A stretch of 64,000 bases of DNA, taken from positions 76,333 through 140,332 of the forward strand of contig JBAZSC010000003.1 of the NCBI GenBank assembly GCA_041662665.1, in the 5' to 3' direction. The stretch comes from Patescibacteria group bacterium. Lineage in GTDB: Bacteria > Patescibacteriota > JABMPQ01 > JAQVVF01. A program made the position numbers and the translations under genes. This document shows, one piece after another, positions 1,528 to 46,860 of the stretch; the stretch's first letter is position 1, and each line of letters opens with the position of its first letter. The notes below the pieces were generated by a model. It saw only the letters and a list, made by a program, of their open reading frames with translations. It was not told the DNA's origin and did not search any database.

Positions 1528-3330
1528 ATGAAAAAATTAATCCGAAGAAACAGTTTAATGTTTTTAAGCGCTGTTTTTGTATTGGTACTTTCTTGCTTTG
1601 TTTTTTTGCAGAAAAATGTTCAGGCAGCAACTTGGCAGATTGAGACTGTGGATAATAGTTCGGATAATGTAGGTTCAGATAGTTCTTTGGCTTTGGATTC
1701 TTTTGGTAATCCAAGAATTAGTTATTTTGAAAATGAAAATAAAGCTCTTAAATATGCTTTTTGGAATGGATCTGCTTGGAATATACAAACGGTTGATGAT
1801 ACAGGTAGCGTTGGTCAATATACTTCTTTAGCATTAGATTCTTCTAACAATCCAAGGATTGCTTATCAAGATCTTTCGAATTATAGTCTCAAATACGCTT
1901 CTTGGAATGGCTCTGCTTGGGATATGCAGGCAGTTGATGAGACACATATTATTGCTCGCAGTATTTCTTTAGCATTGGATTCTTCTAACAATCCGAGAAT
2001 TAGTTATTATGATTGGTTTAATGATGATCTTAAATATGCTTCATGGGATGGTTTCGTGTGGGATATTCAGATAATTGATGTTGGTCAGCATCCTTCTCTA
2101 GCTCTAGATTCTTTTAATAACCCACATATTAGTTATTATGATGCTACTCTTGATGATCTCAAATATGCATCATGGAATGGATCTGCTTGGGTTATAGAGA
2201 CGATTGATTCAACAGGTGATGTTGGCGGAGATAATTCTTTAGCTTTGGATTCTTCTAATCACCCACATATTAGTTATTATGATGCTACTCTTGATGATCT
2301 CAAATATGAATCATGGAATGGATCTGCTTGGGTTATAGAGACGATTGATTCAACAGGTGATGTTGGCGGAGATAATTCTTTAGCTTTGGATTCTTCTAAT
2401 AACCCACATATTAGTTATTATGATGCTACTCTTGATGATCTTAAATATGCATCATGGAATGGATCTGCTTGGGTTATAGAAACAGTTGATTCAACAGGTG
2501 ATGTTGGCGGAGATAATTCTTTAGCTTTGGATTCTTCTAATAACCCACATATTAGTTATTATGATGCTACAAATGGTAATCTTAAATATGCTTTTGCTGA
2601 TGTTACTGCACCAATTACAACTGCAAGTCCAGCAGGTGGCATATATTCTTCAACACAATCAGTGGTATTAACAGCTGTTGATGATTCTGCATTTACAACA
2701 TATTATACAACTGACGGATCAGAGCCAACAACTTCTTCAACACAATATACTGTTCTAATTAGTATTTCTTCAGATACAACATTAAAATTCTTTTCCGTTG
2801 ATATTTATGGTAATGTTGAGAATGTAGAAACTGAAATTTATGAATTTGATCGTATTATTTTAACTTCAGAATTAAATAATCAAGCTGTCACTAGTTGTGG
2901 TTTAAAATTCAAGTTTAAGAAATTGCCTACAAAGTTAACTAAAGATAAAAAATACTGGATTAAATGTAAAAAGACTAAGAAGTATCCTAGAAAATGGCAG
3001 AATGCAAAAAAGACTGCCTTGAAGAAATATTGGAAGATAACTACTAATCTCAGAAAATACAAAGTTAAAAAATCTTCACAGAAATTTAAGATTAAAGTAG
3101 CTTTTAAGTATACTAAAGCAGAATTTAAGAAGTTGAGGAAAAGAAATAGATTGGCAAAAGAAAATAATTTGTTTTTGAAATTCAAGATTAAAAAAGGAAC
3201 TTGGAAATCATTATCTGATGTTTGGACTAATGCAAAGATCAAGCGTAATGTGAAAACGAATAGGTTCACTGTCACATATTTTACAAAGTTTCCTAAAAAG
3301 ATTTATTATTTTGGGATTGGATTGAAATAA
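1528..3330 (+). CDS. Secreted modular repeat protein: signal peptide, ~10 beta-propeller-type repeats (…SLALDSxNNPxISYYD…LKYASWNGSAW), chitobiase/beta-hexosaminidase C-terminal-like domain, lysine-rich C-terminal domain
   Basis: N-terminal hydrophobic signal; ~47-aa repeats; 'YYTTDGSEPTTSS…TLKFFSVDIYGN' CHB_HEX_C-like motif; about 160-aa tail with >30% Lys/Arg. Confidence 0.7.
   Translation: MKKLIRRNSLMFLSAVFVLVLSCFVFLQKNVQAATWQIETVDNSSDNVGSDSSLALDSFGNPRISYFENENKALKYAFWNGSAWNIQTVDDTGSVGQYTSLALDSSNNPRIAYQDLSNYSLKYASWNGSAWDMQAVDETHIIARSISLALDSSNNPRISYYDWFNDDLKYASWDGFVWDIQIIDVGQHPSLALDSFNNPHISYYDATLDDLKYASWNGSAWVIETIDSTGDVGGDNSLALDSSNHPHISYYDATLDDLKYESWNGSAWVIETIDSTGDVGGDNSLALDSSNNPHISYYDATLDDLKYASWNGSAWVIETVDSTGDVGGDNSLALDSSNNPHISYYDATNGNLKYAFADVTAPITTASPAGGIYSSTQSVVLTAVDDSAFTTYYTTDGSEPTTSSTQYTVLISISSDTTLKFFSVDIYGNVENVETEIYEFDRIILTSELNNQAVTSCGLKFKFKKLPTKLTKDKKYWIKCKKTKKYPRKWQNAKKTALKKYWKITTNLRKYKVKKSSQKFKIKVAFKYTKAEFKKLRKRNRLAKENNLFLKFKIKKGTWKSLSDVWTNAKIKRNVKTNRFTVTYFTKFPKKIYYFGIGLK
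2121..2575 (+). repeat. Intragenic 141-bp tandem repeat, about 3.2 near-identical copies (encodes 47-aa propeller repeats)
   Basis: Repeat starts at 2121, 2262, 2403 and 2544, giving a period of 141 bp; copies are almost identical at DNA level, unlike the upstream divergent repeats. Confidence 0.85.
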
Positions 3331-3407
3331 CTTTTCTCTAATATTAAAAATTTTGTATTCCAAGATTTTTAATTCTCTAATCGGCTTTTCGAATGTTATC
3401 TTTAATA

Positions 3408-3431
3408 AAAACCCGTCGAGTGACGGGTTTT
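3408..3431 (+). terminator. Rho-independent terminator hairpin (aaaacccgtcgagtgacgggtttt)
   Basis: Inverted repeat plus T-run after the stop at 3330. Confidence 0.6.
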
Positions 3432-3436
3432 GTGAT

Positions 3437-3489
3437 TTCTACCTGGCTTCAGCCAAGTGGTCGGAAAACTTTAGTTTTTAGTTCGAGAG
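3437..3489 (+). repeat. Two-hairpin intergenic element, copy 2
   Basis: TCTACC-cctggc/ttca/gccaagt-GGT…aaaac/tttag/tttt; paralogous to 1303-1353. Confidence 0.6.
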
Positions 3490-3509
3490 ATATTTAGATA
3501 TTGGATATT

Positions 3510-3582
3510 AGCCACTTCCCGGGATCGAACCGGGGACCTTTGCTTTACGAAAGCACTGCTCTACCAACTGAGCTAAAGTGGC
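3510..3582 (-). tRNA. tRNA-Thr (anticodon CGU)
   Basis: Reverse complement folds as a cloverleaf: acceptor GCCACTT/AAGTGGC, D-arm GCTC…GAGC, anticodon loop TTCGTAA, T-arm CCCGG-TTCGATC-CCGGG. Confidence 0.8.
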
Positions 3583-3584
3583 AT

Positions 3585-3655
3585 AGCGGGTAATGAGAAT
3601 CGAACTCACATATCTTGCTTGGGAAGCAAGCGCACTACCACTGTGCTATACTCGC
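3585..3655 (-). tRNA. tRNA-Gly (anticodon CCC)
   Basis: Reverse complement: D-arm GCAC…GTGC, anticodon stem CTTGC/GCAAG with loop TTCCCAA, T-loop TTCGATT, acceptor with one A-C mismatch. Confidence 0.75.
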
Positions 3656-3735
3656 TCATGATTCATTATTCTTAATTCATTATTCTTTAAGATTATACTT
3701 GATTTTTAAAATTTTGTAAATCATGCTAAAATGTA

Positions 3736-3801
3736 ACTAGTGAATAGTAATTAGTAACTAGATTCGACGTACTAATTACTAGTTACTTATTACTAGTTAA
3801 C
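3736..3801 (+). promoter_or_regulatory. Large imperfect palindrome (tagtaattagtaactag … ctagttacttattacta) immediately upstream of the 3812 gene; candidate operator
   Basis: About 16-nt arms around centre attcgacgtac, with iterated TAGTAA/TTACTA half-sites. Confidence 0.4.
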
Positions 3802-3811
3802 AAAAAATATT

Positions 3812-4894
3812 ATGTTGCAAAATAAAGACGTAACCAAACTTAACCGCTTACAAAGTGATAAAGAAGATGTTGTGACAATTTATTTGAATTGCGATCAAAG
3901 AAGATACAAGCCAGAAGAAATAGAAGAAAAATTAAAAGATTTATTGAAAATTGTTGGAGAAAAATTAGGTGCTGAAGAAACAAAGAAAATTGAAGAATGG
4001 ATTGATTTAAGATTAGATAAAAAAGTTAAAGGCATGGCATTTTATGCTAGTCCGTCTAAAAATTTTTGGTCGATTTATAAATTTCCTTGTCCAATTAAAA
4101 CAGGAGCTTATGTTGAAAAGAATGTTCATATCGAACAATTATTGCAAGTCTTGGATGAATTAGAAAGGTATTGTGTTGTAGTTTGTGACAAGGAAAAAGC
4201 AAAAATATTTACAGTTTTTTTGGGTGTCATTCAAGATTTTAGTTATATTTTTGATGAGTTTCCAGGAAAGCATGATCAAGGTGGATTAGCGCAACAAAAT
4301 CAGGCTTCGCATACTGAAGAACATGTTCGTCAGCATTTGAAAAAAATTAATGAACAATTATTTAAGTTCTGGAAAGAAAAAGGATTTGATAGATTAATTC
4401 TAGCTGGATCAAAAGAGGTCTTGCCGGAATTAAAAAAAGTTTTGCATACGGAATTAAAAAATAGAGTAGTCGGTGAATTTTTTACAGAATTATTTAAGCC
4501 TAACGAACATTTTTTGGAGCAGTCTTTAGTAGTTCAAGAAAAAGTAGAAAGACAGAATGAAAAAAAATTAGTTGATGAATTAAATAACAGCTTGAACGGT
4601 CAATTAGCAGTTGCTGGTTTGAAAAAAGTTTTAGATGCAATTCAAGAAAGAGATATAAAAGCTTTATTAGTGGATTCTAAATTAAGTACAACCGGCAAGA
4701 AATGTCCAAATTGTGATTTTTTGGGATTGGATGAAGTTGTTTGTCCTTATTGCAGTTTTAAAACTGAAGATGTGAAAGATGTTGTTGATGAATTAGTTCA
4801 AAAAGCATATAGCCATCGCGCGAAAATAGAGTTTGTTGAAAATAATGAAGTATTAGCGGGAATGGGTGGGATTGGAGCGATGCTACGGTTCTAG
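3812..4894 (+). CDS. Bacterial eRF1/Pelota-superfamily protein (baeRF1-like) with inserted zinc ribbon
   Basis: C-terminal 'LAGMGGIGAMLRF' matches the Pelota/eRF1 domain-3 ending (…GGIAAILRY); three-domain length of about 360 aa; CPNC…CPYC zinc-ribbon insert; 'HDQGG' in the central domain. Confidence 0.55.
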   Translation: MLQNKDVTKLNRLQSDKEDVVTIYLNCDQRRYKPEEIEEKLKDLLKIVGEKLGAEETKKIEEWIDLRLDKKVKGMAFYASPSKNFWSIYKFPCPIKTGAYVEKNVHIEQLLQVLDELERYCVVVCDKEKAKIFTVFLGVIQDFSYIFDEFPGKHDQGGLAQQNQASHTEEHVRQHLKKINEQLFKFWKEKGFDRLILAGSKEVLPELKKVLHTELKNRVVGEFFTELFKPNEHFLEQSLVVQEKVERQNEKKLVDELNNSLNGQLAVAGLKKVLDAIQERDIKALLVDSKLSTTGKKCPNCDFLGLDEVVCPYCSFKTEDVKDVVDELVQKAYSHRAKIEFVENNEVLAGMGGIGAMLRF

Positions 4895-5000
4895 TACTAA
4901 AGTTATAAAGTTTTTAAAGTTCATAAAGTAAAATTGTTAATTGCTAAATTGTTAGAATTATTTAACAATGGAACAATGGAACAATAAAACAATTTCGACT

Positions 5001-5900
5001 ATGAAACCTATCGAGCAAGATAAATTATTATTTCCAGAAATTCTAGCTCCCAGACCAAAAGAAGCTCACAAAAAATCTGTTGGCAGTGTGATGATTGTTG
5101 CTGGATCTGATGGGATGTCTGGAGCAGCAACTTTATGTTCTGAAGCAACAATGCGTGCTGGAGCTGGAATTGTGCTTTTGGCATTTCCAAAAAGTTTGTC
5201 TGAAATTTATACAAAATTAATTCCAGAAGTTTTGACATTGCCTTGCGATGAGACAAAAGAAAAAACTTTGGCATTGTCATCTTTAGATAAAATTTTGGAA
5301 GAAGCAAAAAAATACGATGTGATTTTGATTGGTCCAGGATTATCTCAAAATAATGAAACAAGAAAATTGATTTGTGAATTGTTTAAAAATCTAAAAAATT
5401 TGCATAAAAATGTGGTTTTAGATGCTGATGGATTAAACGCTATTGCTGGTCAAATAGAATTATTAGAAAAATTAGGTGATAACAAAACTATTTTATTGCC
5501 TCATGCTGGTGAGATGGCGAGATTAACAAATAAAGATGTTGATAATATTCAAAGAGATCGAGAATGGCTAGTTAGAAAAAAGGCAAAAGAATGGAAATGT
5601 GTTTTAGTGATAAAAGGTTATGAAACAGTTATTTCTGATGGTGAAAGAGTAATAATTAATAAATCTGGCGGACCGGAATTAGCAACTGCTGGAACTGGCG
5701 ATGCTTTGGCGGGCATGGTCGCTGCTCACTTTGCAGGAAATGTTAATCTGCCTTTTGAAGCAACTGCAACTGCTGTATATTTGCATGGTTTGGCTGGAGA
5801 TATGGTTAGCAAAAAGTTAGGTGAACGTTCTGTTTTGGCGACTGATGTGATAAATATGTTGCCTGAGGTAATAAAGAAAGTGTTAAATAAGTTAGACTAG
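5001..5900 (+). CDS. nnrD: ADP-dependent NAD(P)H-hydrate dehydratase (YjeF C-terminal / Nnr2 family)
   Basis: GSVMIVAGSDGMSGAA…GPGL…DADGLN…GGPELATAGTGDALAGMVAA motifs. The start is placed at an internal ATG (MKPIEQ) because the upstream part of the ORF overlaps an AACAATGG repeat array. Confidence 0.75.
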   Translation: MKPIEQDKLLFPEILAPRPKEAHKKSVGSVMIVAGSDGMSGAATLCSEATMRAGAGIVLLAFPKSLSEIYTKLIPEVLTLPCDETKEKTLALSSLDKILEEAKKYDVILIGPGLSQNNETRKLICELFKNLKNLHKNVVLDADGLNAIAGQIELLEKLGDNKTILLPHAGEMARLTNKDVDNIQRDREWLVRKKAKEWKCVLVIKGYETVISDGERVIINKSGGPELATAGTGDALAGMVAAHFAGNVNLPFEATATAVYLHGLAGDMVSKKLGERSVLATDVINMLPEVIKKVLNKLD

Positions 5901-5947
5901 TTAGATTGGTTAGACTTGTTATTAGTTAAATTGCTAAATTGTTAAAC
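5891..5947 (+). repeat. 9-bp-period GTTAGAYNN tandem array followed by an 8-bp ATTGYTAA array in the 3' intergenic region
   Basis: gttagacta gttagattg gttagactt gtta… attgctaa attgttaa. Confidence 0.7.
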
Positions 5948-5989
5948 TATTTTTTTGTTTCAATGTTTTAGTGTTTAAGTGTTTCTGTA

Positions 5990-6817: not shown

Positions 6818-6826
6818 CTAAAAAAT

Positions 6827-7423
6827 ATGTTGAGAAAAATGCCTAGTTTGTTGCAGATAAAAAGCTTTATGAAGAAAGTGGCGAAAGAAAATGGAATTTC
6901 GGAACAAGTTGATGAAACTTGGGATCATGAGACTCGAGTTTGGAAATTTGCAGAAAAAATTGCAAAATTAGCAATTAAAAATGGCAATAAAGTTGATTTG
7001 GATTTTTTGAAGATTGCTTGTTATACTCATGATTTGGGCAGAATGGTTTCTGGAAGCAAAGCTTCAAAGGAATTAGAGCCAGCAATTTTTCATGGAATGC
7101 GAGGTTATAAATTGGCGAAAGAGCAAGGTTGGCCAGAGAAATTGGCAAGGGTTTGCATTCGGCATATGGGAGGTATCGGACAGACAAAGGAAGTGAATAA
7201 AAAAATAGGATTAGGAAACAAAGATACTTTGGCAAAAACAATTGAAGAAAAGATTTTAGCTTATGCTGATTGTCGGACTTTTTTTAATGTAGAAAAAGGT
7301 AGGGCAGACATTTATCCTTTTGATGTAACTTATCGCAGATTTAAAGTTTATCCTAGAGCAGGAGAATTATTGTTAAAAAATAAAAAGTTTATTGATAAAA
7401 TAACTGGTGGAAAATTGGATTAA
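6827..7423 (+). CDS. HD-domain phosphohydrolase
   Basis: H…HD motif (CYTHDLGR), downstream His (IRHMGGIG) and Asp. Confidence 0.55.
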   Translation: MLRKMPSLLQIKSFMKKVAKENGISEQVDETWDHETRVWKFAEKIAKLAIKNGNKVDLDFLKIACYTHDLGRMVSGSKASKELEPAIFHGMRGYKLAKEQGWPEKLARVCIRHMGGIGQTKEVNKKIGLGNKDTLAKTIEEKILAYADCRTFFNVEKGRADIYPFDVTYRRFKVYPRAGELLLKNKKFIDKITGGKLD

Positions 7424-7572: not shown

Positions 7573-9684
7573 ATGACAAAATTTAACAAAATTTTTATTT
7601 GGAGCGTTGTTTTTGTGTTAACAATTTTTGGCTTGGCTAATTTTAGCCAAGCTAGAACATGGACGCAAAGCGGGACAGATGGATTAGGAGATACAGCTAA
7701 TTGGAATTTCTATGGTTTTCAGACAATTGGCAATTCACTTTTTACGGGATCTTTGTATGTGGGTCCTGCTAATGGCGCTCAAGCTTTTACAACGTCAGAT
7801 GGATCAACTTGGGTTTCAGTTGATGCAACTGGTTTTGGAGATGGCAACAATTATTCTTATGGAGGCGGAAATACAACATTTAACAATAATGTTTATTTTT
7901 GTTTGAGAAATATTACAACTGGAGCAGAGGTTTGGTCAACATCAAATACTGGCGTTTTGTCTGCTTCACAAGTTAATGTGGATGGTTTTGGAGCTGGCAA
8001 TCAAAATGCTGATTGTTATTTCTTGAAAGAATATAAGGGTATTTTGTATGGCGGAACGGAAAATACAACTGCAGGAGGTCAAGTTTATGCTTATTCTAAT
8101 GGAACAACTTGGACACAAACAAATACTAATGGTTTTGGCAGTATTAATAACGATATTTTTTATTCAGGTGAGGTTTTTAAAAACTACTTATATGTTGGAA
8201 CACGCAATGCTACAACTGGCGGACAGATTTGGCGGACAGATGGAAGTACTTGGTCGCAGGTAACTGGCGATGCATTTGGAGTTGGCAATGCTAGTTATGG
8301 AATTATGACTCTGCAAACTTTTGGTAATTATCTTTATGCTGGTATTGCTAACAATGGCGGTGCGCAAATTTGGCGAACTAGCGATGGTGTTAACTGGACA
8401 AATACTGGTTTTAGCAGCACTTTTAGCTTGAGTATTCAAGGTATGTATGCAACTGACAATTTATTGTTTGCTGGGACCTCAAATCTTGGCAGTGGAGCAG
8501 GTGTTTTTGAAACAAGCGATGGTACAAATTGGATTCAAAATAATGTTGGAGGTTTTGGTACAAGCGGTATTATGGGCAATATTATAGTAAGGGGTATGGG
8601 GTTATTTGGCGATTATTTGTATGCTGGCGCATTTAAAGCTAATGGAGGTACAATTTGGAAAACCGATATAATTCCTCCGATTGTGACAGCTAGCCCAGAT
8701 AATAAAGCTTCTAGAAAAAAGATTAAAGTGACATTATCAAGCAATGACAGTTCAGGATCAATTTATTACACAACTGATGGTTCAATACCGACAACTGGAT
8801 CAAATTTGTATACTGGACAGATAACTTTTAAAAAGACTAAAATTTTAAAATTTATTGGTGTTGATACTGAAGGCAATGTGAGTTCAGTTCAAACGAAACA
8901 TTATGTTGTAACAAGCTATCCATATTTATATAATACTAACAAAGAATTGCGCGAGAAGAATGGGACAATAAAATTTTATAATATTTCAACTTCTAAATAT
9001 GGCAAGAAATTTAAGCCGTTTTCTTCTGGTTTGAAATATTTTACGGTTGCTGATCCAAATCAAGATAATAAGACAGAAATTATTGCAAATAATGGAAATG
9101 AAATTAAGTTTTATAATTCTAAAAGAAAGCTAAGATATACTTTGAAAAGTGCGAATGATTATTTAACATTTGGTGATATTAATAATAGCAAAAAAGAAAA
9201 AACTTTGATTGCAAAAGCTAAGACTTTAAAAATTTATAACAAGACAAGTTTAGAGAAAACATTTAATTTTTCAGAAAATATAAAAAGTATTGCAGTCGGC
9301 AGAGTATTGAAATATGATCAGCCTTTGATAATTGTTGGTTTTGATGATCAGATTAAATTATATAAATATAAAAATAAAAGTTTAGTTTTGAAAAAAACAA
9401 AGTCATTAAACTACAGTAAATTATTGGCTTATGATTTGGATACTAATGGAACTGATAACATTATTTATTCTAAAAACAAAAAAGTTTATGTATTAAATAA
9501 GAAGTTGAAGAAAAAGTTTTCTTTTAGCGCTGGCGGAAGTTTTTTAGCAGTAGCAGATGTCAATGATGACTATTTATTAGAAATTTTAGCAAGTACTGGA
9601 AAGAAATTAAAAACTTATTCAAATGAAGGAATTTTGTTGAATAGCAAAAAAGATAGCGGGAAATGGATTGGAGCAAGATTTTAA
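7573..9684 (+). CDS. Secreted modular repeat protein: signal peptide, Thr/Gly/Trp-rich beta-propeller-like repeats (…GGQIWRTxDGxxWTQ…GFG…), CHB_HEX_C-like domain, Lys-rich C-terminal region
   Basis: Signal peptide; iterated ~45-aa repeats; 'IYYTTDGSIPTTGSNLYTGQI…LKFIGVDTEGN' motif; basic C-terminal 300 aa. Confidence 0.65.
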   Translation: MTKFNKIFIWSVVFVLTIFGLANFSQARTWTQSGTDGLGDTANWNFYGFQTIGNSLFTGSLYVGPANGAQAFTTSDGSTWVSVDATGFGDGNNYSYGGGNTTFNNNVYFCLRNITTGAEVWSTSNTGVLSASQVNVDGFGAGNQNADCYFLKEYKGILYGGTENTTAGGQVYAYSNGTTWTQTNTNGFGSINNDIFYSGEVFKNYLYVGTRNATTGGQIWRTDGSTWSQVTGDAFGVGNASYGIMTLQTFGNYLYAGIANNGGAQIWRTSDGVNWTNTGFSSTFSLSIQGMYATDNLLFAGTSNLGSGAGVFETSDGTNWIQNNVGGFGTSGIMGNIIVRGMGLFGDYLYAGAFKANGGTIWKTDIIPPIVTASPDNKASRKKIKVTLSSNDSSGSIYYTTDGSIPTTGSNLYTGQITFKKTKILKFIGVDTEGNVSSVQTKHYVVTSYPYLYNTNKELREKNGTIKFYNISTSKYGKKFKPFSSGLKYFTVADPNQDNKTEIIANNGNEIKFYNSKRKLRYTLKSANDYLTFGDINNSKKEKTLIAKAKTLKIYNKTSLEKTFNFSENIKSIAVGRVLKYDQPLIIVGFDDQIKLYKYKNKSLVLKKTKSLNYSKLLAYDLDTNGTDNIIYSKNKKVYVLNKKLKKKFSFSAGGSFLAVADVNDDYLLEILASTGKKLKTYSNEGILLNSKKDSGKWIGARF

Positions 9685-12711: not shown

Positions 12712-13093
12712 AACTTAAAACTTTAAAAATCGTTGACCTGGAAAAAGTAAGTTAGTTATTTTTAAAAGTCTGCTTTCGCTAAAGCTACAGCAGACGAAGC
12801 GAATAAGGGATAGTGAGAGCCTTATAAAAATACTAGCTGAAAATGGATCCAGCGAGATGATAAGTTAAATACTTATCCGGTTGCCTCCGTAACCATAGGC
12901 TAACTGATATCTTGAATCCACCTTTGCTAAAGCTTCGGTGGACAAAGGAGTCAGTAAGTGATCAGTGTTTTTGCACTGATAAACAAGGTGGTAACACGGG
13001 AAGACTTCTCGTCCTTGAATACTTTTTAGAAGTATTTTAGGATGAGAAGTTTTTTGTTATGATCGATCTTTCACAACGCAAGGAGGAGAGAAG
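12712..13093 (+). promoter_or_regulatory. About 380-nt structured 5' leader of the RPH-like gene, containing two copies of the CCGCC-hairpin element and several other stem-loops
   Basis: Promoter TTGACT-N17/18-TATAAT at 12677-12708. Hairpins at 12769-12801, 12858-12882 and 12916-12950; a weak terminator-like hairpin at 13018-13040; SD AAGGAGGAG at 13080. Confidence 0.45.
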
Positions 13094-15619
13094 ATGAAAG
13101 TTCTATACCTGAGAAATCTGATGGGTTTGGAAGTGTCGCAGATTGGTGGCAAAGCATTTAATTTGGGCAAGTTAATTATGGCTGGATTTAATGTACCAAG
13201 TAGAGGTTTTGTGTTAGATGTGGATGTTTTGGACAGTTGGCCAAGTGGACGTGAAGAAGTAGCAGATTTTTTTGTAGATTATTTTGGTGGACAAGTCGTA
13301 GCTGTGAGAAGTTCAGCAGTAGCAGAAGATTCTGGATCAGCTTCTTTTGCTGGTCAGTACAAAACTACCTTGCATGTTAGGACTAGGGAAGAATTTTTGC
13401 GAGCAGTTGATGATTTCGTTGCTGGTTTGCTTGATGATGGCATTCAAGCATATCAGACAGTAGTTAAGCAGAAAGATTCAGGTCGACGGCAGGCAGCTTT
13501 GATTGTTCAGGAAATGGTTGAAGCAGAAATTGCTGGTGTGCTTTTTACGGTTAACCCACTCGATGGTTTGGACGAGATGATGATTACAGCAGCTTCTGGT
13601 ATTGGTGAGGCATTGGTATCTGGTCAGGTGACTGGAGATACATATGTTGTTGATAGAGATGGGATGCTCAAAAAGATGGTTATCGGCGGTGTAAAAAAAG
13701 ATTTGCGAGATGGTGTTGGCTTGATGACAAATAGAGATGTTGCTGAGAGAATTTTGGATGATAGTTTGCTGATGTATTTAGTAAAAATTGGCAAGCGGGT
13801 TGAAGAACTATTCCAATGTCCGCAAGATATCGAATGGGCAATTGTTGGTTCGCAGATTTTTTTGCTGCAAGCTCGACCAATTACGGCAATGTCTACTTTG
13901 GGTTTGCAGCGTCAAAAAGTTATTGATGATCTTGGAAATTCTTTTGAAAAAGAGAGAGCGAGATTGGAAGAGTTAGGTGTTGTATTGGCAACTGATTGTT
14001 TTTCTGATCAAAATATTGCTGAGCTTTTGACTCGTCATCCTACGCCAATGGCTTTTGGAGCATTCTGTTATATTTTTGCTGATGGCGAAGCTGGAATCCG
14101 GCTTGGTCGCAATCAAATGGGTTATGAGATTGGGTCAGAACTTGATCATGGTTTTTTCAGATTAGTTGGTGGTCAACCTCGTTGTAGTATTGTTCATGAT
14201 GCTTTTACTTATCGGATTGCTGGAATTCCGTTGTCGGATTATGCGATTTTGGTGAGATATTATTTGGAGAAAATTGCTGAAGATTCTAAAATGGCAAATT
14301 ATCCAGAAGTAGTGCTCTATAAGCAAGATCCGAGTTTGGAATTTCTGACAGAATTGTTTGGAGCAGAAAAAGCACAGTTCTATCGAGTGGCTTTTGATCG
14401 ATTTTTTACTGGATTAGCAGTGTTGATTGAGCAAACGGTGTTGGAGATGAAGACATTCGAAGATGATTTTAGGGCTTATATTGCAAGAGAGAAAGTCAAG
14501 ATGGAAAGTTTGGACATGAATCTTCAAGCTAATATTGCTCTATGCATGGAAATGTTTGATCATCTGCGAACTGTTGCTTGTGTGATGTTTGTTAAAGTTG
14601 CACGTTTGGGATTTTTTGCTTATGCACGACTTCGAGAAAAAATGGCATTGCATTATGGTAAAGAAAAGGGCGAGCAGTTGTTAGCAACATTAACTAGTGG
14701 ATTGGATAATGATCCGTCTTTGCATTTCAATGTTTGTTTGGCACAGTATCGTGATGGTCAAATCACTTTTTCTGAACTTTTGGAAAGATATGGTCATTTG
14801 GGTGCGAATGAACTAGAGGTTTCAGGATTGCGTTATCATGAAGATTCAAGTTTGTTGGAGCGTTACGCAGAACAGATTGCTGGAGATCCTCGTGTTGAAT
14901 TGGCACGCAGAAAGGCAGAATGTGATAAGGTTCGTGCAACTGTGGCAACGGAATTGGGAGAAGAAGTGGCTAGCTGGGTTGAGGTAGCGCGACAGTATTT
15001 GGCTGGTAGAGAATTAATCAAATATCTTTATTTGATGGAATATGATTTAGTTCGGCAAATGTTACTTAGAATCGAAAAGATTTTACATTGGGAAGATGAT
15101 TTGGTCTTCTGTCTTTATCCAGGAGAGATTCCAATGTTGCAATATGATAGCGAACGTATCCATAGAAAAGCAGTTGCGCGTTTGCAGCGTAGGCGTGAGC
15201 AAATGAATATCTATGTTCCGCCAGTAATTTTCTCTGATGATTTGGAGAGGATCGGTCAATCTCCATATCAAGCATCTGATAAGATTTTGACTGGCTTTGG
15301 AGTGACAGATCAGGTGGTGACTGGAGAGGTAGTTAAAGTGGCTGATCCAAGGGATAGAAAACAAATTGCCAAGCTTTTTGCAGGTTGTGTTCTAGTGACA
15401 ATGACAACTGATCCTTCTTGGGCCCCATTGATTGCAGCGATTGGTAGTAACGGTGGTTTGGTGACTGAGATTGGAGGTCCTTTGGCGCATGGGGCAATTG
15501 TAGCTAGAGAATTGGGAATTGGCGCTGTCTTGGATGTTACTGGAGCAATGCAGATTTTGCAGGATGGAATGAGAGTAGAGGTTAATGGTCCTTTGGGAGT
15601 TGTGAAGATTTTGGATTGA
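13094..15619 (+). CDS. PEP-utilising-enzyme family protein with PPDK-N ATP-grasp domain and C-terminal swivelling His domain (rifampin-phosphotransferase / PEP-synthase-like)
   Basis: N-terminus 'QIGGKAFNLGKL…GFNVPSRGFVL'; C-terminus 'LVTEIGGPLAHGAIVARELGIGAVL' (PEP-utilisers mobile-domain His); no PEP-binding TIM barrel; about 840 aa like the Rph family. Confidence 0.7.
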   Translation: MKVLYLRNLMGLEVSQIGGKAFNLGKLIMAGFNVPSRGFVLDVDVLDSWPSGREEVADFFVDYFGGQVVAVRSSAVAEDSGSASFAGQYKTTLHVRTREEFLRAVDDFVAGLLDDGIQAYQTVVKQKDSGRRQAALIVQEMVEAEIAGVLFTVNPLDGLDEMMITAASGIGEALVSGQVTGDTYVVDRDGMLKKMVIGGVKKDLRDGVGLMTNRDVAERILDDSLLMYLVKIGKRVEELFQCPQDIEWAIVGSQIFLLQARPITAMSTLGLQRQKVIDDLGNSFEKERARLEELGVVLATDCFSDQNIAELLTRHPTPMAFGAFCYIFADGEAGIRLGRNQMGYEIGSELDHGFFRLVGGQPRCSIVHDAFTYRIAGIPLSDYAILVRYYLEKIAEDSKMANYPEVVLYKQDPSLEFLTELFGAEKAQFYRVAFDRFFTGLAVLIEQTVLEMKTFEDDFRAYIAREKVKMESLDMNLQANIALCMEMFDHLRTVACVMFVKVARLGFFAYARLREKMALHYGKEKGEQLLATLTSGLDNDPSLHFNVCLAQYRDGQITFSELLERYGHLGANELEVSGLRYHEDSSLLERYAEQIAGDPRVELARRKAECDKVRATVATELGEEVASWVEVARQYLAGRELIKYLYLMEYDLVRQMLLRIEKILHWEDDLVFCLYPGEIPMLQYDSERIHRKAVARLQRRREQMNIYVPPVIFSDDLERIGQSPYQASDKILTGFGVTDQVVTGEVVKVADPRDRKQIAKLFAGCVLVTMTTDPSWAPLIAAIGSNGGLVTEIGGPLAHGAIVARELGIGAVLDVTGAMQILQDGMRVEVNGPLGVVKILD

Positions 15620-21405: not shown

Positions 21406-21981
21406 ATGAAAAAACTTTGGGAAAAAATAATGAATTTCAGATTTAAAGGTGCATTTATTTTGACATTAATATTTATTTTATTGTTAGTTTTTGTTTTAGT
21501 ATTTGAACGAAATCGAGAAGTAAAATTGGATGAAGCTGGTCAAGAAACTTTTACAGTTTTGGATATTAAAAAAGATGATGTGCAAAAAGTTACATTTAAT
21601 AATGATGGCGAGAAATTAGTTTTGAATAAACAGGATGACGGATCTTGGAAAGGCAAGAAAGAAGTTATGAAAGATAATAAGAAAAGCACTGACTATTTCA
21701 AAGTTGATAGCACAAAACTTGATCCTATTTTAGATGAAATGATAAAAATTGAGGCAGCAGAAAAGATTGAAAATCCTAATCTAAAAGATTATGGTTTAGA
21801 GAATGCAAAATATTCTGCAATATTTGAATTAAAAAATAATAAGAAAAAAGAATTATTTGTTGGAGACAAAAATCCTGATGGATCTTCAGTTTATGCAAAA
21901 ATTTCTGATGAAGATTATGTTTTTTTAGCTCAAACTTCAATAAAAGCAAAAATTCAGACTAAAGAAAGCGATTTGAAATAA
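21406..21981 (+). CDS. Membrane-anchored hypothetical protein (DUF4340-like position after gldG)
   Basis: N-terminal TM; synteny. Confidence 0.35.
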   Translation: MKKLWEKIMNFRFKGAFILTLIFILLLVFVLVFERNREVKLDEAGQETFTVLDIKKDDVQKVTFNNDGEKLVLNKQDDGSWKGKKEVMKDNKKSTDYFKVDSTKLDPILDEMIKIEAAEKIENPNLKDYGLENAKYSAIFELKNNKKKELFVGDKNPDGSSVYAKISDEDYVFLAQTSIKAKIQTKESDLK

Positions 21982-40264: not shown

Positions 40265-40267
40265 ATT

Positions 40268-41150: not shown

Positions 41151-41221
41151 CTTGCGAAAAGCTTGATATTCGGATATTATGATATTAAGCGGAAAGTTGT
41201 TTTTGTGTTTTTAGTGTTTAA

Positions 41222-42721
41222 GTGTTCGAGTGTTTTATGACAATAGAAGATCTAAAAAAGAAAAATATTCATGTCTTAGGCGTTTCTGGAGCTGAAGGAA
41301 GCGCGGTTTTGGAATTTTTGGCTGATAATGGAGTTAAAAATATTACTGCTCATGATTTTTGCGATCAAGATAAATTTAAAGAAAGTTTTTTTTCTTTTCA
41401 TGACAAAATGACAAAAAAAGAAAAAGAAGAAACATATAATGAGATTATCCGCCTTCGCCAAGGCTCCGGCGGACAAGGAAAGGTTAAGTTTAATTATAAA
41501 GATACTTATCTTGACCAAATTGAAAAGGCAGATTTGATTTTTGTGCCTCAATCTTGGTTTAGATATGCGCAAAATGATTTATTGAACCAGCATAAAGGAA
41601 AAATCGAATTTTCTAATATTACAAAATTATATTTTCAATTTTGCAAAGGCAAAATAATTGCAATAACTGGAACATCTGGAAAATCAACGACTTCAGCATT
41701 AGTAAATGATATAATGAAGCGAGGATATAAATTAGGCAAGGTCTATTTTACTGGCAATGATCGTGAGAATGTACAGATTCTAAAAAATATTTTTGAAATT
41801 AAAGAAAATGATATTTTAGTTGTTGAAGTAAGCAACAGGCAATTAATGATTGATTTGAAAAAAAGTCCGTATATTGGCATTATTACGAATATCTCGCCGA
41901 ATCACATGGATGATCATAAGACTTTTACTGATTATATTACAACAAAGAGAAGTTTGATCAGATATCAAAAAAAAGGTGATTTTGCAATTTTGAATTTTGA
42001 TAATGATATTACAAAGGATATTGGCTTAGATATTGATTCAACAGTTTATTATTTTTCTAGAAAAGGCAGAGTTGATCGAGGCGCTTATGTAAAATTCAAT
42101 GAAATAATAATTCAAGATTTTGAAAGAGAAAGAAAAATTTGTTCAGTTTTGGATTTAAAAATTCCTGGACCACATAACATTGAAAATGCTTTGGCAGCAA
42201 GTTTGGCTGGATATTTGATGAAAATTAATACGAAAGATATCAGAGAAGCATTGTTAAATTTTAAGGGTATAAAATCGAGATTAGAATTAGTAAGAGAAGT
42301 TGATGGCGTTTCATATATTGAAGATTCTTCAGCTTGCAATCCTGATGGGACTGCTGTTGCTGTTTCATCATTTAAAAAACCAATGATTTTAATTGCTGGA
42401 GGATCAAGGAAAAAACCATATCCAGGAGAATTCGATAGAATGGCTGATTCAATAATAAATTCAAAAGTAAAAATTGTTTTTTTGATTGGAGAGAGAGCAG
42501 AAACAATTAAATTAGCTTTAAAAAATTCGAGTATAAGATTTCAAAAAACTAGTCCAATAATTAAAATATCTGAAAATTTGGAGGATGCAGTTATTTCTGC
42601 CAATAAATCAGCAAAAAGAGGTGATATCGTAATTTTATCGCCTGGTTGTGAAAGCTTTGGTCTCTTTATTGATTATCGCGATCGAGCGAGACAGTTTAAA
42701 AAATTAGTGAAAAGTTTATAA
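41222..42721 (+). CDS. murD: UDP-N-acetylmuramoylalanine--D-glutamate ligase carrying an in-frame CCGCC-hairpin element insertion
   Basis: 'HVLGVSGAEGSA', 'GTSGKSTT' Mur-ligase motifs; element at 41447-41482 encodes 'RLRQGSGGQGKV'. Confidence 0.75.
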   Translation: MFECFMTIEDLKKKNIHVLGVSGAEGSAVLEFLADNGVKNITAHDFCDQDKFKESFFSFHDKMTKKEKEETYNEIIRLRQGSGGQGKVKFNYKDTYLDQIEKADLIFVPQSWFRYAQNDLLNQHKGKIEFSNITKLYFQFCKGKIIAITGTSGKSTTSALVNDIMKRGYKLGKVYFTGNDRENVQILKNIFEIKENDILVVEVSNRQLMIDLKKSPYIGIITNISPNHMDDHKTFTDYITTKRSLIRYQKKGDFAILNFDNDITKDIGLDIDSTVYYFSRKGRVDRGAYVKFNEIIIQDFERERKICSVLDLKIPGPHNIENALAASLAGYLMKINTKDIREALLNFKGIKSRLELVREVDGVSYIEDSSACNPDGTAVAVSSFKKPMILIAGGSRKKPYPGEFDRMADSIINSKVKIVFLIGERAETIKLALKNSSIRFQKTSPIIKISENLEDAVISANKSAKRGDIVILSPGCESFGLFIDYRDRARQFKKLVKSL

Positions 42722-42740
42722 TGTATAAACGCGATTAATT

Positions 42741-43877
42741 GTGTTTATACTAAATTATTATAAAGTGGCTTTAAAACAAAAACCAGATTATGTATTTTTA
42801 GTTGTGACTTTAATTCTTGTTGTTTTTGGATTAATTATGTTATCTTCAGCAAGTGTTGTTTTGTCGTACCAAAATTTTGCGAATAATTATTATTATTTTA
42901 CACACCAACTATTATTTGGAGTACTGATTGGTTTAGTAGCGATGTTTGTTTGCTACAAAATTGATTATCATAATTGGAAAAAATTTGCAGCATTAATGTT
43001 AGTTTTAACTTTAGTCTTGTTGGTCCTAGTTTTTATTCCTGGACTTGGCTTTGAGTATGGAGGTGCAAAAAGGTGGGTTAATCTTGGTCCGTTAGGCACA
43101 ATTCAGCCTACAGAAATTGCAAAATTGACTTTTCTTTTATATTTAGCAACATGGCTAGACAAAAGGTCTCAAGGTATAAAAGATTGGAAATATAGTTTTG
43201 CACCATTTTTATTTATGTTGGCTGTTGTCGGAACTTTGACAGTGTTGCAACCTGATGTTGGGACGATGTCAGTAATTATGTTGATGTCGATAATTGTTTA
43301 TTTTGTGGCAGGTGGAAAATTAACGCATCTGGGAATTTTGGGAGTTGGCGCTGTTTTGATGATGATGCTTTTAATAAAAATAGCGCCATATAGAATGTCT
43401 CGTTTTACAGTATTTTTGAATCCTGAATTGGATCCACAAGGAATTGGCTATCAAATTAATCAATCTTTGCTGGCAGTTGGATCTGGTGGAATTTTGGGAC
43501 GAGGTTTAGGCAAGAGTATTCAGAAACACAATTATCTCCCAGAAGCATCAGGTGATTCGATTTTTGCTGTTATTGCTGAAGAAATGGGTTTTGTGAGAAT
43601 TATCTTTTTGTTATTGTTATTTTTATTTTTTGCCTATCTTGGATTTAGAATTGCGAAGAGAGCGCCAGATATGTATGGAAAATTAATTGCAACAGGAATT
43701 ACATCTTGGGTGATTTTGCAAGCTTTAATTAATATTTCAGCAATGATTTCTTTAATTCCTCTAACTGGTATTCCTTTACCTTTTATATCATATGGCGGTT
43801 CGGCAATTATCGCTTTGCTGGCTGCTTGTGGGATCATGCTAAATATTTCAAAACAATCTCTAATTAAAAATGACTGA
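42741..43877 (+). CDS. ftsW: SEDS-family peptidoglycan glycosyltransferase (FtsW-like)
   Basis: 10 TM helices; 'PEASGDSIFAVIAEE', 'GGSAII' SEDS motifs; dcw synteny after murD. Confidence 0.8.
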   Translation: MFILNYYKVALKQKPDYVFLVVTLILVVFGLIMLSSASVVLSYQNFANNYYYFTHQLLFGVLIGLVAMFVCYKIDYHNWKKFAALMLVLTLVLLVLVFIPGLGFEYGGAKRWVNLGPLGTIQPTEIAKLTFLLYLATWLDKRSQGIKDWKYSFAPFLFMLAVVGTLTVLQPDVGTMSVIMLMSIIVYFVAGGKLTHLGILGVGAVLMMMLLIKIAPYRMSRFTVFLNPELDPQGIGYQINQSLLAVGSGGILGRGLGKSIQKHNYLPEASGDSIFAVIAEEMGFVRIIFLLLLFLFFAYLGFRIAKRAPDMYGKLIATGITSWVILQALINISAMISLIPLTGIPLPFISYGGSAIIALLAACGIMLNISKQSLIKND

Positions 43878-43905
43878 TATTCTATTTGATTTAATATAAA
43901 AATAC

Positions 43906-46860
43906 ATGAAAAAAATATTTGTATTTGGAGCAGTATTTATTGCTTTAATTTTGTTTTGTTTTTTTAATTTCATACCTATTAAAAATGTATTGGCTTCGGA
44001 ATCATGGAAAGCAATGGATGGTGGTACAAACAATGAAATAACTTCTTTTGCTGTTTATAATAACGAATTGTACGTTGGAGGAAGTTTTACAGAAGTTGGT
44101 GGAATTAGTGCAGATTATATTGCCAAATGGAATGGTTCAACTTGGAGTGATGTAGGGGGTGGAACGGATAGTGATGTTTTAGCAATGGCTGTTTATAATG
44201 GCGAACTTTACGTAGGTGGTTATTTTTCAGTGGTAGGAAGTGTTAGTGCTAATTATATAGCAAAATGGGATGGCAACACTTGGAGCGCTATTGGTACTGA
44301 ATCGATGGATAGCAATGTGTATGCTCTTACAGTGTTCAATAATAAACTTTATGTAGGCGGAGATTTTACTACAATTGATGGGGTAAATCCTGTATTATAT
44401 ATTGCATATTGGGATGGTAATACTTGGAGTGCTGTTGGAGCTGGAGTAGACTATGATATTTATGTTTTGGCTGTATATAATAATGAGTTGTATGCTGGAG
44501 GAGATTTTTTGAATGCTGGTGGGGCTAGCGCAAATTATATTGCAAAATGGGATGGTAATACTTGGAGTGCTATTGGTACTGGAACTGATAATACAGTTTA
44601 TACAATGGCAGAATATGATGGAGAACTTTATGTAGGCGGGAGATTTGATACAGCTGGTGGAGTGAGTGCCGCAAAAATTGCAAAGTGGGATGGCAATACT
44701 TGGAGTGTTGTTAGTACTGGTTTTGACAACACTGTACTAGTGCTTTCTGTTTATAATAATAAGCTTTATGCAGGAGGATATTTTAAAAATGCTGGTGGTG
44801 CTAATGCTAATTATGTTGCAAAATGGGATGGTGATGCTTGGAGCGGAGTCGGAACAGGTATGAATAGCTACATAAATGCATTTGTTATTTTTAACAATGC
44901 TTTATATGCTGGAGGTAATTTTGAGTTTATTAATGTTTTAAAAGCTGATTTTGTTGCAAAATGGGATAGTGATACTGCTGATTGGAGCTCAGTTGGTACA
45001 GGTATGAATGGTGCTATATATGATTTTGTTGTATATAATGCTGAGCTTTATGCAGCTGGTACTTTTTCTAATGCTGGAGGCGTAGTTGCACATTATATTG
45101 CAAAATGGGATGGTAATACGTGGACTGCATTGGCTTCAGAGGTAAATAACATTGTTTATACGTTAGTTGTTTATAATAACGAGCTTTACGCTGGTGGATA
45201 TTTTACCCAAGCTGGTGGGGGTAGCGCAAATTATATTGCAAAATGGGATGGAAATTCTTGGAGTGCACTTGGAACAGGAATGAATCAATATGTATACACA
45301 ATGGCTGTTTATAATGACGAGCTTTATGCTGGTGGAACTTTTGCTACCGCTGGCGGAGTTAGTGTTAACTATATTGCAAAATGGGATGGTAATGCTTGGA
45401 GTGCGCTTGGAACAGGAATGAACAGTTATGGTTTCGTAAATACTTTGGCAGTTTATAATAGTGAACTTTATGCAGGAGGAAATTTTACTACTGCAGGCGG
45501 TATTAGTGCTTTGCGTATTGCAAAATGGGACGGTGATTCCTGGAGCGCACTTGGAGTCGCGGGTACTGGGATGAATTCTTCTGTTGGTGCTTTAATCGTT
45601 CATAACAATGAACTTTATATTGGAGGTTATTTTACTACCGCTGGAACTGTTAATCCAGCTAATCGTATTGTGAAATGGGATGGTAATAATTGGTTTGCTT
45701 TAGGAAGCGGGGTAGAAGGACAAGGCGGTGCTGGGGTATCTAATCTTGATATCTATAATGATCAACTTTATGTAGCAGGAAATTTTACTTCTGCAGGTGG
45801 TATTGATGCATTTCGTATTGCAAAATGGGACGGTAATTCCTGGAGCGCAGTTGGAAATGGAGCAACTGATAGTGTGGCAGCAATGACTGATTACGATGGA
45901 GAGCTTTATGTTGGTGGTTTGTTTTACTATGTTGATGGTGAATCGGTACTACATATTGCATATACTGATAGTATTGTCCCAGTTACGACTGCTACTCCAG
46001 CAGGTGGAACTTATGATGATTCTGTGTCAGTAACTTTGGCATCCGATGAGACAGCAACAACTTATTATACTATTGATGGGTCTACTCCAAGCACATCTTC
46101 TTTAGTTTATTCTGATCCAATTGTGATTTCTCAAGATACAACGCTTAAATTTTTTTCTGCAGATTCCTTTGGTAATGAAGAAGTTGTGAAAACAGAGAAT
46201 TATGTTATAAATATAACACCAACTCCTACTCCAGAGCCGACTCCTACACCAACGCCAACAATATTATTTAATGAAAAAATAAATTTAAAGAATATTACAT
46301 TAAATACTATTTATCGAAGCCCAATTGATAATGCTGATCTTTTATTTTATAGGTTGCCTAAACAAGGATCGATAAAAGATTTGTATATAAAATTGATTCG
46401 AAATAAAACAAAATATATTAATGGTTTTACAAAAAAGAATAGTCATCCAGGTTATTTAAAGTTGTTATCAAATATAGGTACAGTTGACAAAGCATATTAC
46501 AATAAAGTTGATAAGCATATTAAATTTAGAATTTCAATTCGTTATTCAAAAAATAAATTAAACAAAGCAAATATCAAAGAAAAAGATTTGAGACTATTTA
46601 TAAAAGATAGAGATAATAATTGGCGAGGACCATTTACGATATATCAAAATAGAACTACTCATATAATAAAATTTAAGATCAGAAATTATTTGGTTAAAAT
46701 TCCAAATACAGCTACTTTGGCAAATGAAAATAGGACTTTTGCTCCATGTTTTTATTTTAAGACAATTGAAAAAATAAAATTTGTGATTGCGAAGAAAAAT
46801 GCATTGTCTAAATTAAGCAAGCTTGAGACTGTAGAAGATAAAAATTTGATTTTTGAATAG
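43906..46860 (+). CDS. Giant secreted modular protein: signal peptide, ~17 'YIAKWDGNTWS…NELYAGG.F..AGG' beta-propeller repeats, CHB_HEX_C-like domain, (PT)n linker, Lys-rich C-terminal domain
   Basis: Repeats of about 50 aa; 'TTYYTIDGSTPSTSS…TLKFFSADSFGN'; 'PTPTPEPTPTPTPT'; basic C-terminal domain of about 200 aa. Confidence 0.7.
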   Translation: MKKIFVFGAVFIALILFCFFNFIPIKNVLASESWKAMDGGTNNEITSFAVYNNELYVGGSFTEVGGISADYIAKWNGSTWSDVGGGTDSDVLAMAVYNGELYVGGYFSVVGSVSANYIAKWDGNTWSAIGTESMDSNVYALTVFNNKLYVGGDFTTIDGVNPVLYIAYWDGNTWSAVGAGVDYDIYVLAVYNNELYAGGDFLNAGGASANYIAKWDGNTWSAIGTGTDNTVYTMAEYDGELYVGGRFDTAGGVSAAKIAKWDGNTWSVVSTGFDNTVLVLSVYNNKLYAGGYFKNAGGANANYVAKWDGDAWSGVGTGMNSYINAFVIFNNALYAGGNFEFINVLKADFVAKWDSDTADWSSVGTGMNGAIYDFVVYNAELYAAGTFSNAGGVVAHYIAKWDGNTWTALASEVNNIVYTLVVYNNELYAGGYFTQAGGGSANYIAKWDGNSWSALGTGMNQYVYTMAVYNDELYAGGTFATAGGVSVNYIAKWDGNAWSALGTGMNSYGFVNTLAVYNSELYAGGNFTTAGGISALRIAKWDGDSWSALGVAGTGMNSSVGALIVHNNELYIGGYFTTAGTVNPANRIVKWDGNNWFALGSGVEGQGGAGVSNLDIYNDQLYVAGNFTSAGGIDAFRIAKWDGNSWSAVGNGATDSVAAMTDYDGELYVGGLFYYVDGESVLHIAYTDSIVPVTTATPAGGTYDDSVSVTLASDETATTYYTIDGSTPSTSSLVYSDPIVISQDTTLKFFSADSFGNEEVVKTENYVINITPTPTPEPTPTPTPTILFNEKINLKNITLNTIYRSPIDNADLLFYRLPKQGSIKDLYIKLIRNKTKYINGFTKKNSHPGYLKLLSNIGTVDKAYYNKVDKHIKFRISIRYSKNKLNKANIKEKDLRLFIKDRDNNWRGPFTIYQNRTTHIIKFKIRNYLVKIPNTATLANENRTFAPCFYFKTIEKIKFVIAKKNALSKLSKLETVEDKNLIFE

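Follow-up and report, generated by a model that had tools for sequence, protein, structure and literature searches.

A basic C-terminal domain common to secreted Patescibacteria proteins and its candidate role as a non-covalent envelope anchor

In several described groups of bacterial surface proteins, a variable head is followed by a spacer and a conserved module common to many proteins, as in those carrying SLAP (PF03217), GW, SLH, WxL, CWB2, or LysM domains. The basic C-terminal regions of Lactobacillus S-layer proteins, which are SLAP-related, attach non-covalently to the wall, and binding to lipoteichoic acid has been reported (PMC10221546). The conserved lattice domains of bacterial S-layer proteins are combined with a variety of anchoring domains, some of which, newly found, are present in surface proteins outside the S-layer as well (bioRxiv 10.1101/2024.05.28.596244). 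Here, we analyzed a 64-kb stretch of DNA from a Patescibacteria group bacterium (assembly GCA_041662665.1, contig JBAZSC010000003.1, positions 76,333 to 140,332; hereafter, the window) and describe a basic domain, the tail, that ends two of its putatively secreted proteins. Like the systems above, these proteins combine a variable head, a spacer, and a conserved terminal module, and the tail is strongly basic like the SLAP-related regions. However, it has no sequence match to any of these modules, is predicted to be a single ~200-amino-acid (aa), ~12-strand sandwich rather than a set of tandem 60-80-aa repeats, and is limited to a few Patescibacteria, and its wall binding is only predicted. 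We conclude that the tail is a previously undescribed domain family, probably in a familiar role.

We refer to the open reading frames (ORFs) at 1528-3330, 7573-9684, and 43906-46860 of the window, all on the forward strand, as p1, p2, and p3. All three are intact and encode 600, 703, and 984 aa, respectively. The original prediction had grouped them as a family of three giant exported proteins with one architecture, consisting of a signal peptide, propeller-type repeats, a chitobiase-C-like module, and a lysine-rich C-terminal domain. This layout is indeed common to all three, but they carry three propeller types, the end of p2 is unrelated to the others, and "giant" overstates proteins of 600-984 aa. 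The set was therefore wrongly drawn, and a set defined by the tail would instead consist of p1, p3, and the database proteins P0022, P0007, P0008, P0013, and P0023. The C-terminal regions are basic as predicted, with 27% lysine in p1, 17% in p2, and 16% in p3, compared to a mean of 9% in the window proteome. The p1 tail (2842-3327, aa 439-600) has a net charge of +45 and a pI of 10.6, and that of p3 (46261-46857, aa 786-984), a canonical member of the domain family, has a net charge of +26 and a pI of 10.1.

Pairwise BLASTP among the ends of p1, p2, and p3 found no similarity. A lack of mutual homology was the outcome that the original prediction had named as refuting it; taken alone, this pairwise negative would have wrongly refuted the homology of p1 and p3, which emerged for that pair only and only with profiles. 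A word-index search with the p3 tail returned three close relatives, two of which, both from a Patescibacteria metagenome-assembled genome (MAG), are 228-aa proteins made up of a signal peptide and the tail. We ran the resulting four-sequence profile exhaustively on 1.84 billion cluster representatives and recovered 18 representatives with the tail, all at E <= 4e-29 and with E down to 1e-110. The p3 tail is 42-70% identical to other family members and scores 305 bits on the 18-sequence tail hidden Markov model (HMM), in whose seed alignment p3 itself is included. For the p1 tail, which lies outside the seed, the score is 20.5 bits (E 1.5e-8). Of 2000 shuffled p1 tails, none reached 18.5 bits, the score of the full p1 protein on the same HMM, and the maximum shuffle score was 9.1 bits. 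Comparison of the p1 tail with the family by hhalign gave E 7.7e-5, and a two-sequence profile of the p1 subtype matched the canonical profile at E 2.5e-6 with 89% probability. The smaller four-sequence profile aligned with the p1 tail in the correct register at a non-significant E of 0.066.

The alignment itself is consistent with these scores. MAFFT aligned the p1 tail with the family over its full length, at 25-31% identity and with F25, P29, Y38, N69, Y90, E107, L110, W121, N130, and R135-N136 in common. The p1 form of the tail is a conserved subtype, because a 719-aa protein from another MAG (L004:3653-5812) ends in a tail with 40% identity to it (E 4e-24). The closest relative of p1, P0019, aligns with it in one BLASTP alignment of 650 columns at 41% identity, running from the signal peptide into the tail, and combines a p1-type propeller with a canonical tail. 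On these comparisons, the p1 and p3 tails are remote homologues that represent one basic domain of ~160-200 residues, with p1 the divergent form. When the p1 or p2 tail was the query, word-index searches found nothing. However, such negatives are uninformative for lysine-rich queries, because the p2 query missed its own database entry (P0004/P0005). A p1-type tail was later found in L004.

The tail is also constant in its position. In every full-length multi-domain member, the tail match lies in the last ~200 residues, and in eight of the nine members scanned, it directly follows one to seven CHB_HEX_C_1 modules, often by way of a Pro/Thr linker. In p1, p3, and P0007-P0019, the tail is terminal, has a basic pI, and stands behind CHB_HEX_C_1 in a secreted protein, and the layout of head, CHB_HEX_C_1, and basic tail thus recurs in relatives; the exception is P0020, in which Ig-like domains stand before the tail. 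The heads include GDSL esterases, a right-handed beta-helix protein, Ycf48/BNR-like, Kelch-like (p3-like), and p1-type propellers, and FG-GAP repeats. The Pro/Thr linker that had been predicted in the third protein is present in p3 as read from its translation (46216-46260, aa 771-785, TPTPTPEPTPTPTPT), and a similar linker occurs in P0010-12 and P0018-19. The two 228-aa relatives of the p3 tail, P0001 and P0002, consist of the tail alone behind a signal peptide, and the domain can therefore presumably fold and act alone.

A single chitobiase-C-like module had been predicted for each window protein, and we found one in all three as Pfam PF13290: at 2629-2829 in p1 (aa 368-434, E 2.9e-17), 8713-8895 in p2 (aa 381-441, E 3.8e-18), and 45997-46194 in p3 (aa 698-763, E 1.2e-19). 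Their scores of 62.8, 65.6, and 70.5 bits, respectively, compare to a Pfam gathering score of 22. The three modules are mutually 38-60% identical, with p1 and p3 sharing 60%. PF13290 is also present in nearly all tail-family members, as it is in other surface and glycoside-hydrolase proteins of the CHB_HEX_C_1/Fn3_assoc type. The difference is that the module is coupled here to a terminal basic tail or, in p2, to an FG-GAP-like propeller. The name of the module says nothing about function here, because these proteins lack GH20 and any other catalytic domain for chitin breakdown.

A pronounced charge dipole accompanies this layout. Every tail has a pI of 9.7-10.6 and a net charge of +15 to +46, whereas the rest of the protein, in headed members with a p1- or p3-type tail, has a pI of 4.1-4.8 and a net charge of -17 to -56. 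Lysine makes up 13-27% of the tails compared to 1-6% of the heads of the same proteins. The N-terminal parts of p1 and p3 carry net charges of -40 and -46, and that of p2 carries -2.

Five other tail carriers (P0022, P0007, P0008, P0013, and P0023) appear to belong to the same genome as the window, an assignment made from the accession series rather than by direct reading of the assembly. P0022 is attributed to the same 211.6-kb contig. Together with p1 and p3, this would give at least seven tail copies in one small genome. Among these seven proteins, the six canonical tails are 49-93% identical, and the heads align at only 23-50% over partial stretches. Besides the heads of p1 and p3, these comprise GDSL esterases, a beta-helix protein, and other propellers. 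The National Center for Biotechnology Information (NCBI) names p2 and several of the paralogues after the CHB_HEX_C_1 domain. The real unit would be a cassette of CHB_HEX_C_1 and basic tail, apparently reused on at least seven heads here and otherwise present in a few related MAGs only. Because at least five other unrelated secreted proteins, apparently of the same genome, carry the tail, it is most likely a surface-holding tag.

The tail matches no known family. None of 15 tails consistently matched any Pfam or NCBIfam family, the tail-family profile had no match among Protein Data Bank (PDB) sequences, and literature searches found no description of the domain or its architecture. The suggestion that the lysine-rich architecture was undescribed therefore stands for p1 and p3, which lack Pfam, NCBIfam, and PDB-sequence matches, and fails for p2, whose end is FG-GAP-like. 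Models for SLH, SLAP, GW/SH3b, WxL, CWB2, and LysM were not matched by the p1, p2, or p3 tails at E <= 10 or by the 15 family tails at E <= 1. AlphaFold2, run with the family alignment, predicted the p3 tail as a beta-sandwich of ~12 strands (predicted local distance difference test [pLDDT] 80.3, predicted template modeling score 0.80), in which a single loop (residues 142-162) is poorly predicted. Foldseek with the tail model returned nothing significant in the PDB or BFVD. The p1 tail model was of low confidence (pLDDT 62.9). Its strands follow the order seen in the p3 tail, but the model does not count as independent evidence, since the family alignment served as input for the prediction. 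The family has 23 invariant columns, including W121-x-G-P, Q129-N130, and R141-N142-Y143. As modeled, the tail is a folded domain, not a disordered stretch.

Within the window, the protein encoded at 21406-21981, a DUF4340 protein, scored weakly against the tail profile (11.5 bits; hhalign E 9e-4, probability 23%), and on these scores DUF4340 may be a remote relative of the tail. This gene is the last of an ABC-transporter/GldG-like group. It occupies the position held by the tail-only P0001 in a related MAG, upstream of DAGK and the orf22183 homologue.

The tail was detected in 4 of 185,579 species-level genomes, all of them Patescibacteria, with seven and four loci in two of them, and at seven metagenome loci, six from one sample. 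In L004:1-7968 (MAG CSMAG_2461, JAUWOX01), genes of the tail family stand in tandem, encoding a BNR-type head with a canonical tail, a 113-aa tail fragment, and two p1-type heads, one with the p1-subtype tail (719 aa) and one with a canonical tail (655 aa). Both tail subtypes thus coexist side by side, and the fragments suggest ongoing duplication and decay. In another MAG (STF1_73, JAQVVF01), the tail-only gene of P0002 lies directly after a bAvd and reverse-transcriptase cassette resembling a diversity-generating retroelement (L001:107-2788). We considered P0002 as a target of such an element and dropped the idea when no pair of template and variable repeats was found. Near P0002, there was no direct repeat and no template-variable match allowing for changes at adenines, in a contig that ends just upstream of the cassette. 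In the window, none of the 44 ORFs of at least 150 aa matched a reverse-transcriptase family. The first ~157 nucleotides (nt) of L001 and L002 (L002:1-855) are identical, so that a repeat common to both contig ends precedes two tail-only genes that are paralogues.

Signal peptides had been predicted in all three window proteins. By a sequence heuristic other than SignalP, each N-terminus combines an n-region rich in lysine or arginine with a hydrophobic core of 12 or more residues and a site of the AXA type, and the same feature is present in homologues. The putative sites fall between VQA and A in p1, SQA and R in p2, and VLA and S in p3. In p1, the signal-peptide-like N-terminus covers 1528-1626 (aa 1-33, ending NVQA before ATW), and its hydrophobic region, VFVLVLSCFVFL, has a mean Kyte-Doolittle value of 3.19. 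There is no second transmembrane-like segment in p1, p2, or p3, in which hydrophobic 19-aa windows are confined to the signal peptides. The proteins end in ...FGIGLK, ...WIGARF, and ...NLIFE, with neither a terminal hydrophobic segment nor a sortase (LPXTG-type) C-terminal signal.

How, then, might the tail work? We lean, with modest confidence, toward the view that the p1/p3 tail is a lineage-specific, non-covalent cell-envelope anchor for secreted surface proteins. This idea fits the constancy of the charge dipole, the strictly terminal position of the tail behind Ig-like or Pro/Thr spacers, and the occurrence of one tail on unrelated heads. The tail would bind to the envelope of the producing cell itself through an anionic component, with wall polysaccharide, a teichoic-acid-like polymer, and membrane head groups as candidate ligands. 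The CHB_HEX_C_1 spacer, together with the Pro/Thr linker in p3, and the acidic head would then project outward, and the heads would do the specific work, such as binding, hydrolysis, and perhaps host contact or S-layer formation. The domain boundaries, the homology of the p1 and p3 tails, the fold class, the charge dipole, the distribution, and the sharing of the tail among heads are shown by the analysis, whereas surface localization, ligand, and anchoring are inferred. Polar and aromatic residues kept in both subtypes (N71, E107, W121, N130, R141, and N142) are candidate ligand contacts, judged by their conservation, and p1 or p3 could themselves be S-layer subunits. A broader version, in which the tail is a ZU5-like basic beta-sandwich that constitutes a new lineage-specific surface-display system docking many secreted proteins of a small Patescibacteria clade (S-layer candidates, esterases, and propeller binders) to an anionic envelope polymer, is a tentative and rather doubtful proposal.

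The location of p3 lends weak contextual support to the anchor reading. The gene lies between ftsW (42741-43877) and murG (48144-49751), inside a cell-wall synthesis cluster, and no terminator-like hairpin separates it from ftsW. However, this placement is not conserved, as the p3-like genes of related MAGs are not in an ftsW-murG gap. Several other points weigh against an anchor to the cell's own envelope. The positive charge of the tail would suit the anionic surface of a host equally well, and the window itself gives no evidence of anionic wall polymer production. A scan of viral contigs found no phage protein with the tail; a phage match would have independently supported binding to the producer's own wall. 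Finally, the family is tiny (four species-level genomes and seven metagenome loci), and conservation statistics are therefore shallow.

The strong positive charge of the tails is also what would be expected of an adhesin for the host's anionic surface, such as teichoic acids, lipopolysaccharide, or capsule, which would deliver the heads to the host while anchoring to the producer was achieved otherwise. Such a role would fit the statement in the abstract of PMC12206443 that all cultivated Patescibacteria are obligate episymbionts. In addition, the GDSL esterase and beta-helix heads could act on host envelopes, and secreted tail-only proteins exist. Even so, we regard this explanation as unlikely. 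A conserved tail on variable heads is the pattern of a shared self-anchor rather than of host-specific recognition, and these proteins have no other anchor, neither an LPXTG-type signal nor a C-terminal transmembrane segment. Moreover, the tail lies C-terminal to Ig-like and Pro/Thr spacers, where the wall anchors of monoderm surface proteins are usually found. Less probable again is that the tail is a sorting or docking signal for a protein partner, such as an export or attachment machine or an S-layer lattice, rather than a polymer binder. It is terminal in every multi-domain member and rides on many unrelated cargoes, its best fold matches (ZU5) are protein-protein interaction modules, and restriction to a very small clade would be expected of a co-evolving partner. 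The C-terminal sorting domain (Por_Secre_tail) of the type IX secretion system (T9SS) offers a parallel, being likewise a terminal beta-sandwich on many unrelated secreted cargoes of one genome. However, no candidate machine adjoins any of the loci, tail-only proteins have no cargo to sort, and a domain of 200 aa and ~12 strands is far larger than known C-terminal sorting domains. At 160-200 aa, it is about twice the size of the T9SS domain (~70-100 aa), and the tails did not match the Por_Secre_tail models. The T9SS belongs to diderms of the Bacteroidota group, whereas the named genomes with the tail are all Patescibacteria, which are generally taken to be without an outer membrane. Patescibacteria are called Gram-negative in one preprint (bioRxiv 10.1101/2024.05.28.596244).

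Fold hits to ZU5, FIIND, and GAIN prompted a further explanation, in which the tail would be an autoproteolytic module of the ZU5/GAIN kind, with self-cleavage at R-x-F-[S/A/T]-P before the penultimate strand leaving a tethered fragment. Approximately half of the members read F-S-P here, which we take to resemble the FIIND cleavage site. Nevertheless, p3 and roughly half of the family carry alanine at the position of the putative nucleophile. The 23 invariant columns include no serine, threonine, cysteine, or histidine, and none of the 15 tails matched the Pfam ZU5 or GPS models at E <= 1. Because no nucleophile or histidine is conserved, autoproteolysis is not a family-wide property, and we consider this explanation highly improbable. 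The ZU5, FIIND, and GAIN subdomain B sandwiches of ankyrin, UNC5, CARD8, NLRP1, and adhesion G-protein-coupled receptors also differ from the tail in sequence (4-13% identity) and in context, which for the tail is bacterial and extracellular. We give still less credence to the possibility that the lysine-rich ends are compositional by-products of an AT-rich genome, in the form of fast-evolving, disordered extensions with no function. In its favor, the window has a G+C content of ~31%, and neither pairwise BLASTP nor the word-index searches made with the tails of p1 and p2 found anything. However, the tails are far richer in lysine than both the window proteome and their own heads, and the domain is conserved in four genomes at the E values given above, with a confident fold prediction. 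The 40% identity of the p1 subtype across MAGs and the regular FG-GAP-like repeats at the end of p2 are also at odds with this explanation. An envelope anchor is therefore the role that we continue to favor for the p1/p3 tail.

By contrast, p2 (7573-9684) lies outside the tail family. Its C-terminal region (8905-9681, aa 445-703; net +27, pI 9.8) consists of five to six FG-GAP-like blades of ~42 aa. It did not match the tail profile (hhalign E 0.47, probability 0.1%), and p2 is absent from the tail HMM matches in the window. Pfam FG-GAP_3 aligned to it at E 0.0014 with 19.7 bits, which is under the gathering score of 26.9. An HMM built from five p2 repeats matched three window proteins only, encoded at 60110 (E 1.4e-11), 51392 (E 3e-8), and 58156 (E 7.4e-5), each at several sites ~50 aa apart. 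These are a YkuD L,D-transpeptidase (60110-61513), a metallophosphoesterase (51392-53218), and a polysaccharide deacetylase (58156-59874), all secreted and with Pfam-confirmed FG-GAP modules, and all three probably act on the wall. Judged by these matches, the terminal module of p2 is FG-GAP-like and basic. It resembles FG-GAP/VCBS domains (PF13517, PF01839) in its repeats and in the ability of its profile to pick out the FG-GAP modules of the window. It differs in falling below the gathering score, in its C-terminal position relative to CHB_HEX_C_1, and in being unusually lysine-rich, as the FG-GAP modules of the three enzymes are only mildly basic (pI 8.7-9.2). Because three wall-acting enzymes of the window carry it, the FG-GAP-like propeller may be a second or alternative envelope-association module. 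The whole p2 protein is identical to MFA6296677.1, an NCBI entry from a Patescibacteria MAG named chitobiase/beta-hexosaminidase C-terminal domain-containing protein.

The heads of p1, p2, and p3 likewise differ from one another. The predicted propeller-type repeats of ~45-50 aa were recovered in each protein: seven of 43-47 aa in p1 (1627-2622, SLALDS..NPHISYYD...LKYASWNGSAW...VD..G.VG), seven of 45-50 aa with Asp-box-like S/T-x-D-G-x-x-W motifs in p2 (7654-8667), and ~14 Kelch-like repeats of 46-50 aa in p3 (43996-45975, AKWDGNTWSALG...VYALAVYNNELYAGG.F..AGG). From their sequences, these are three different repeat families with blade numbers that are multiples of seven. The p1 repeats match Pfam DUF7253 only (E 6.7e-12), and the p2 N-terminal propeller has no Pfam match. 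The p3 head is above the Pfam cut-off for DUF5122 (E 1.4e-25, 89.7 bits) and Rax2 (E 4.4e-27, 95.5 bits), and the nearest solved sequence is 8pjx, a designed Kelch-type propeller (E 5.9e-9). The motif said to be common to the first and third proteins is real as a 10-column W-[ND]-G-x-x-W (hhalign P 9e-4), but the p1 and p3 repeats are otherwise different. The p2 and p3 repeats are weakly related (BLASTP 31% identity, E 2e-7; hhalign E 1.5e-5). Blades 4-6 of p1 (2094-2591) are encoded by a 141-nt tandem DNA repeat of 3.5 copies with 95% matches. These blades were therefore duplicated very recently, and copy number may change, or the assembly may have collapsed, at this repeat.

Several observations concern the surroundings of these genes. 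The dcw/mur cluster (41222-54184), which includes a Mur ligase gene, ftsW, murG, murC, and murB, is interrupted by surface-protein genes. The ftsW-murG gap holds p3 and an unannotated 217-aa ORF (46897-47550), and murC and murB are separated by the gene of the FG-GAP metallophosphoesterase. In this region, the only terminator-like hairpins are at 47549-47564 and 48082-48096. Upstream of p1, a perfect (TTC)x14.7 microsatellite (1427-1470) is the only long perfect simple repeat in the window. Its end lies 9 nt ahead of an extended -10-like TGGTATAAT (1477-1485) and 57 nt ahead of the start codon of p1, and it is a candidate slipped-strand (phase-variation) tract controlling p1. A simple promoter scan called no full consensus at the tract. 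Farther along, a full-length T-box leader (12724-13019, forward strand; 99.8 bits, above the Rfam gathering score) lies upstream of an 841-aa PPDK_N/PEP-utilizers gene (13094-15619); T-boxes usually precede aminoacyl-tRNA synthetase or amino-acid genes. A release-factor-like gene of the bacterial archaeo-eukaryotic type (3812-4894; baeRF family 10 and eRF1 domain 3) is adjoined by two tRNA genes on the minus strand (3510-3582 and 3585-3655).

The practical reach of these findings is limited: the tail was detected in only four species-level genomes and a few metagenome contigs, and the organisms are all uncultured. Still, the surface organization and host contact of Patescibacteria are described as largely unknown in the abstract of PMC12206443, and comparable terminal handles (LPXTG, SLH, and the T9SS C-terminal domain) have opened the surface biology of Gram-positive bacteria and Bacteroidota. 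If the tail is an envelope anchor, it would define the set of displayed proteins in this clade from sequence alone and extend the range of known anchoring modules by a new fold. It would also serve as a fusion tag or as a probe for the envelope ligand. If it further constitutes a display system, the tail-bearing proteins would be a first inventory of the host-exposed surface of these bacteria.

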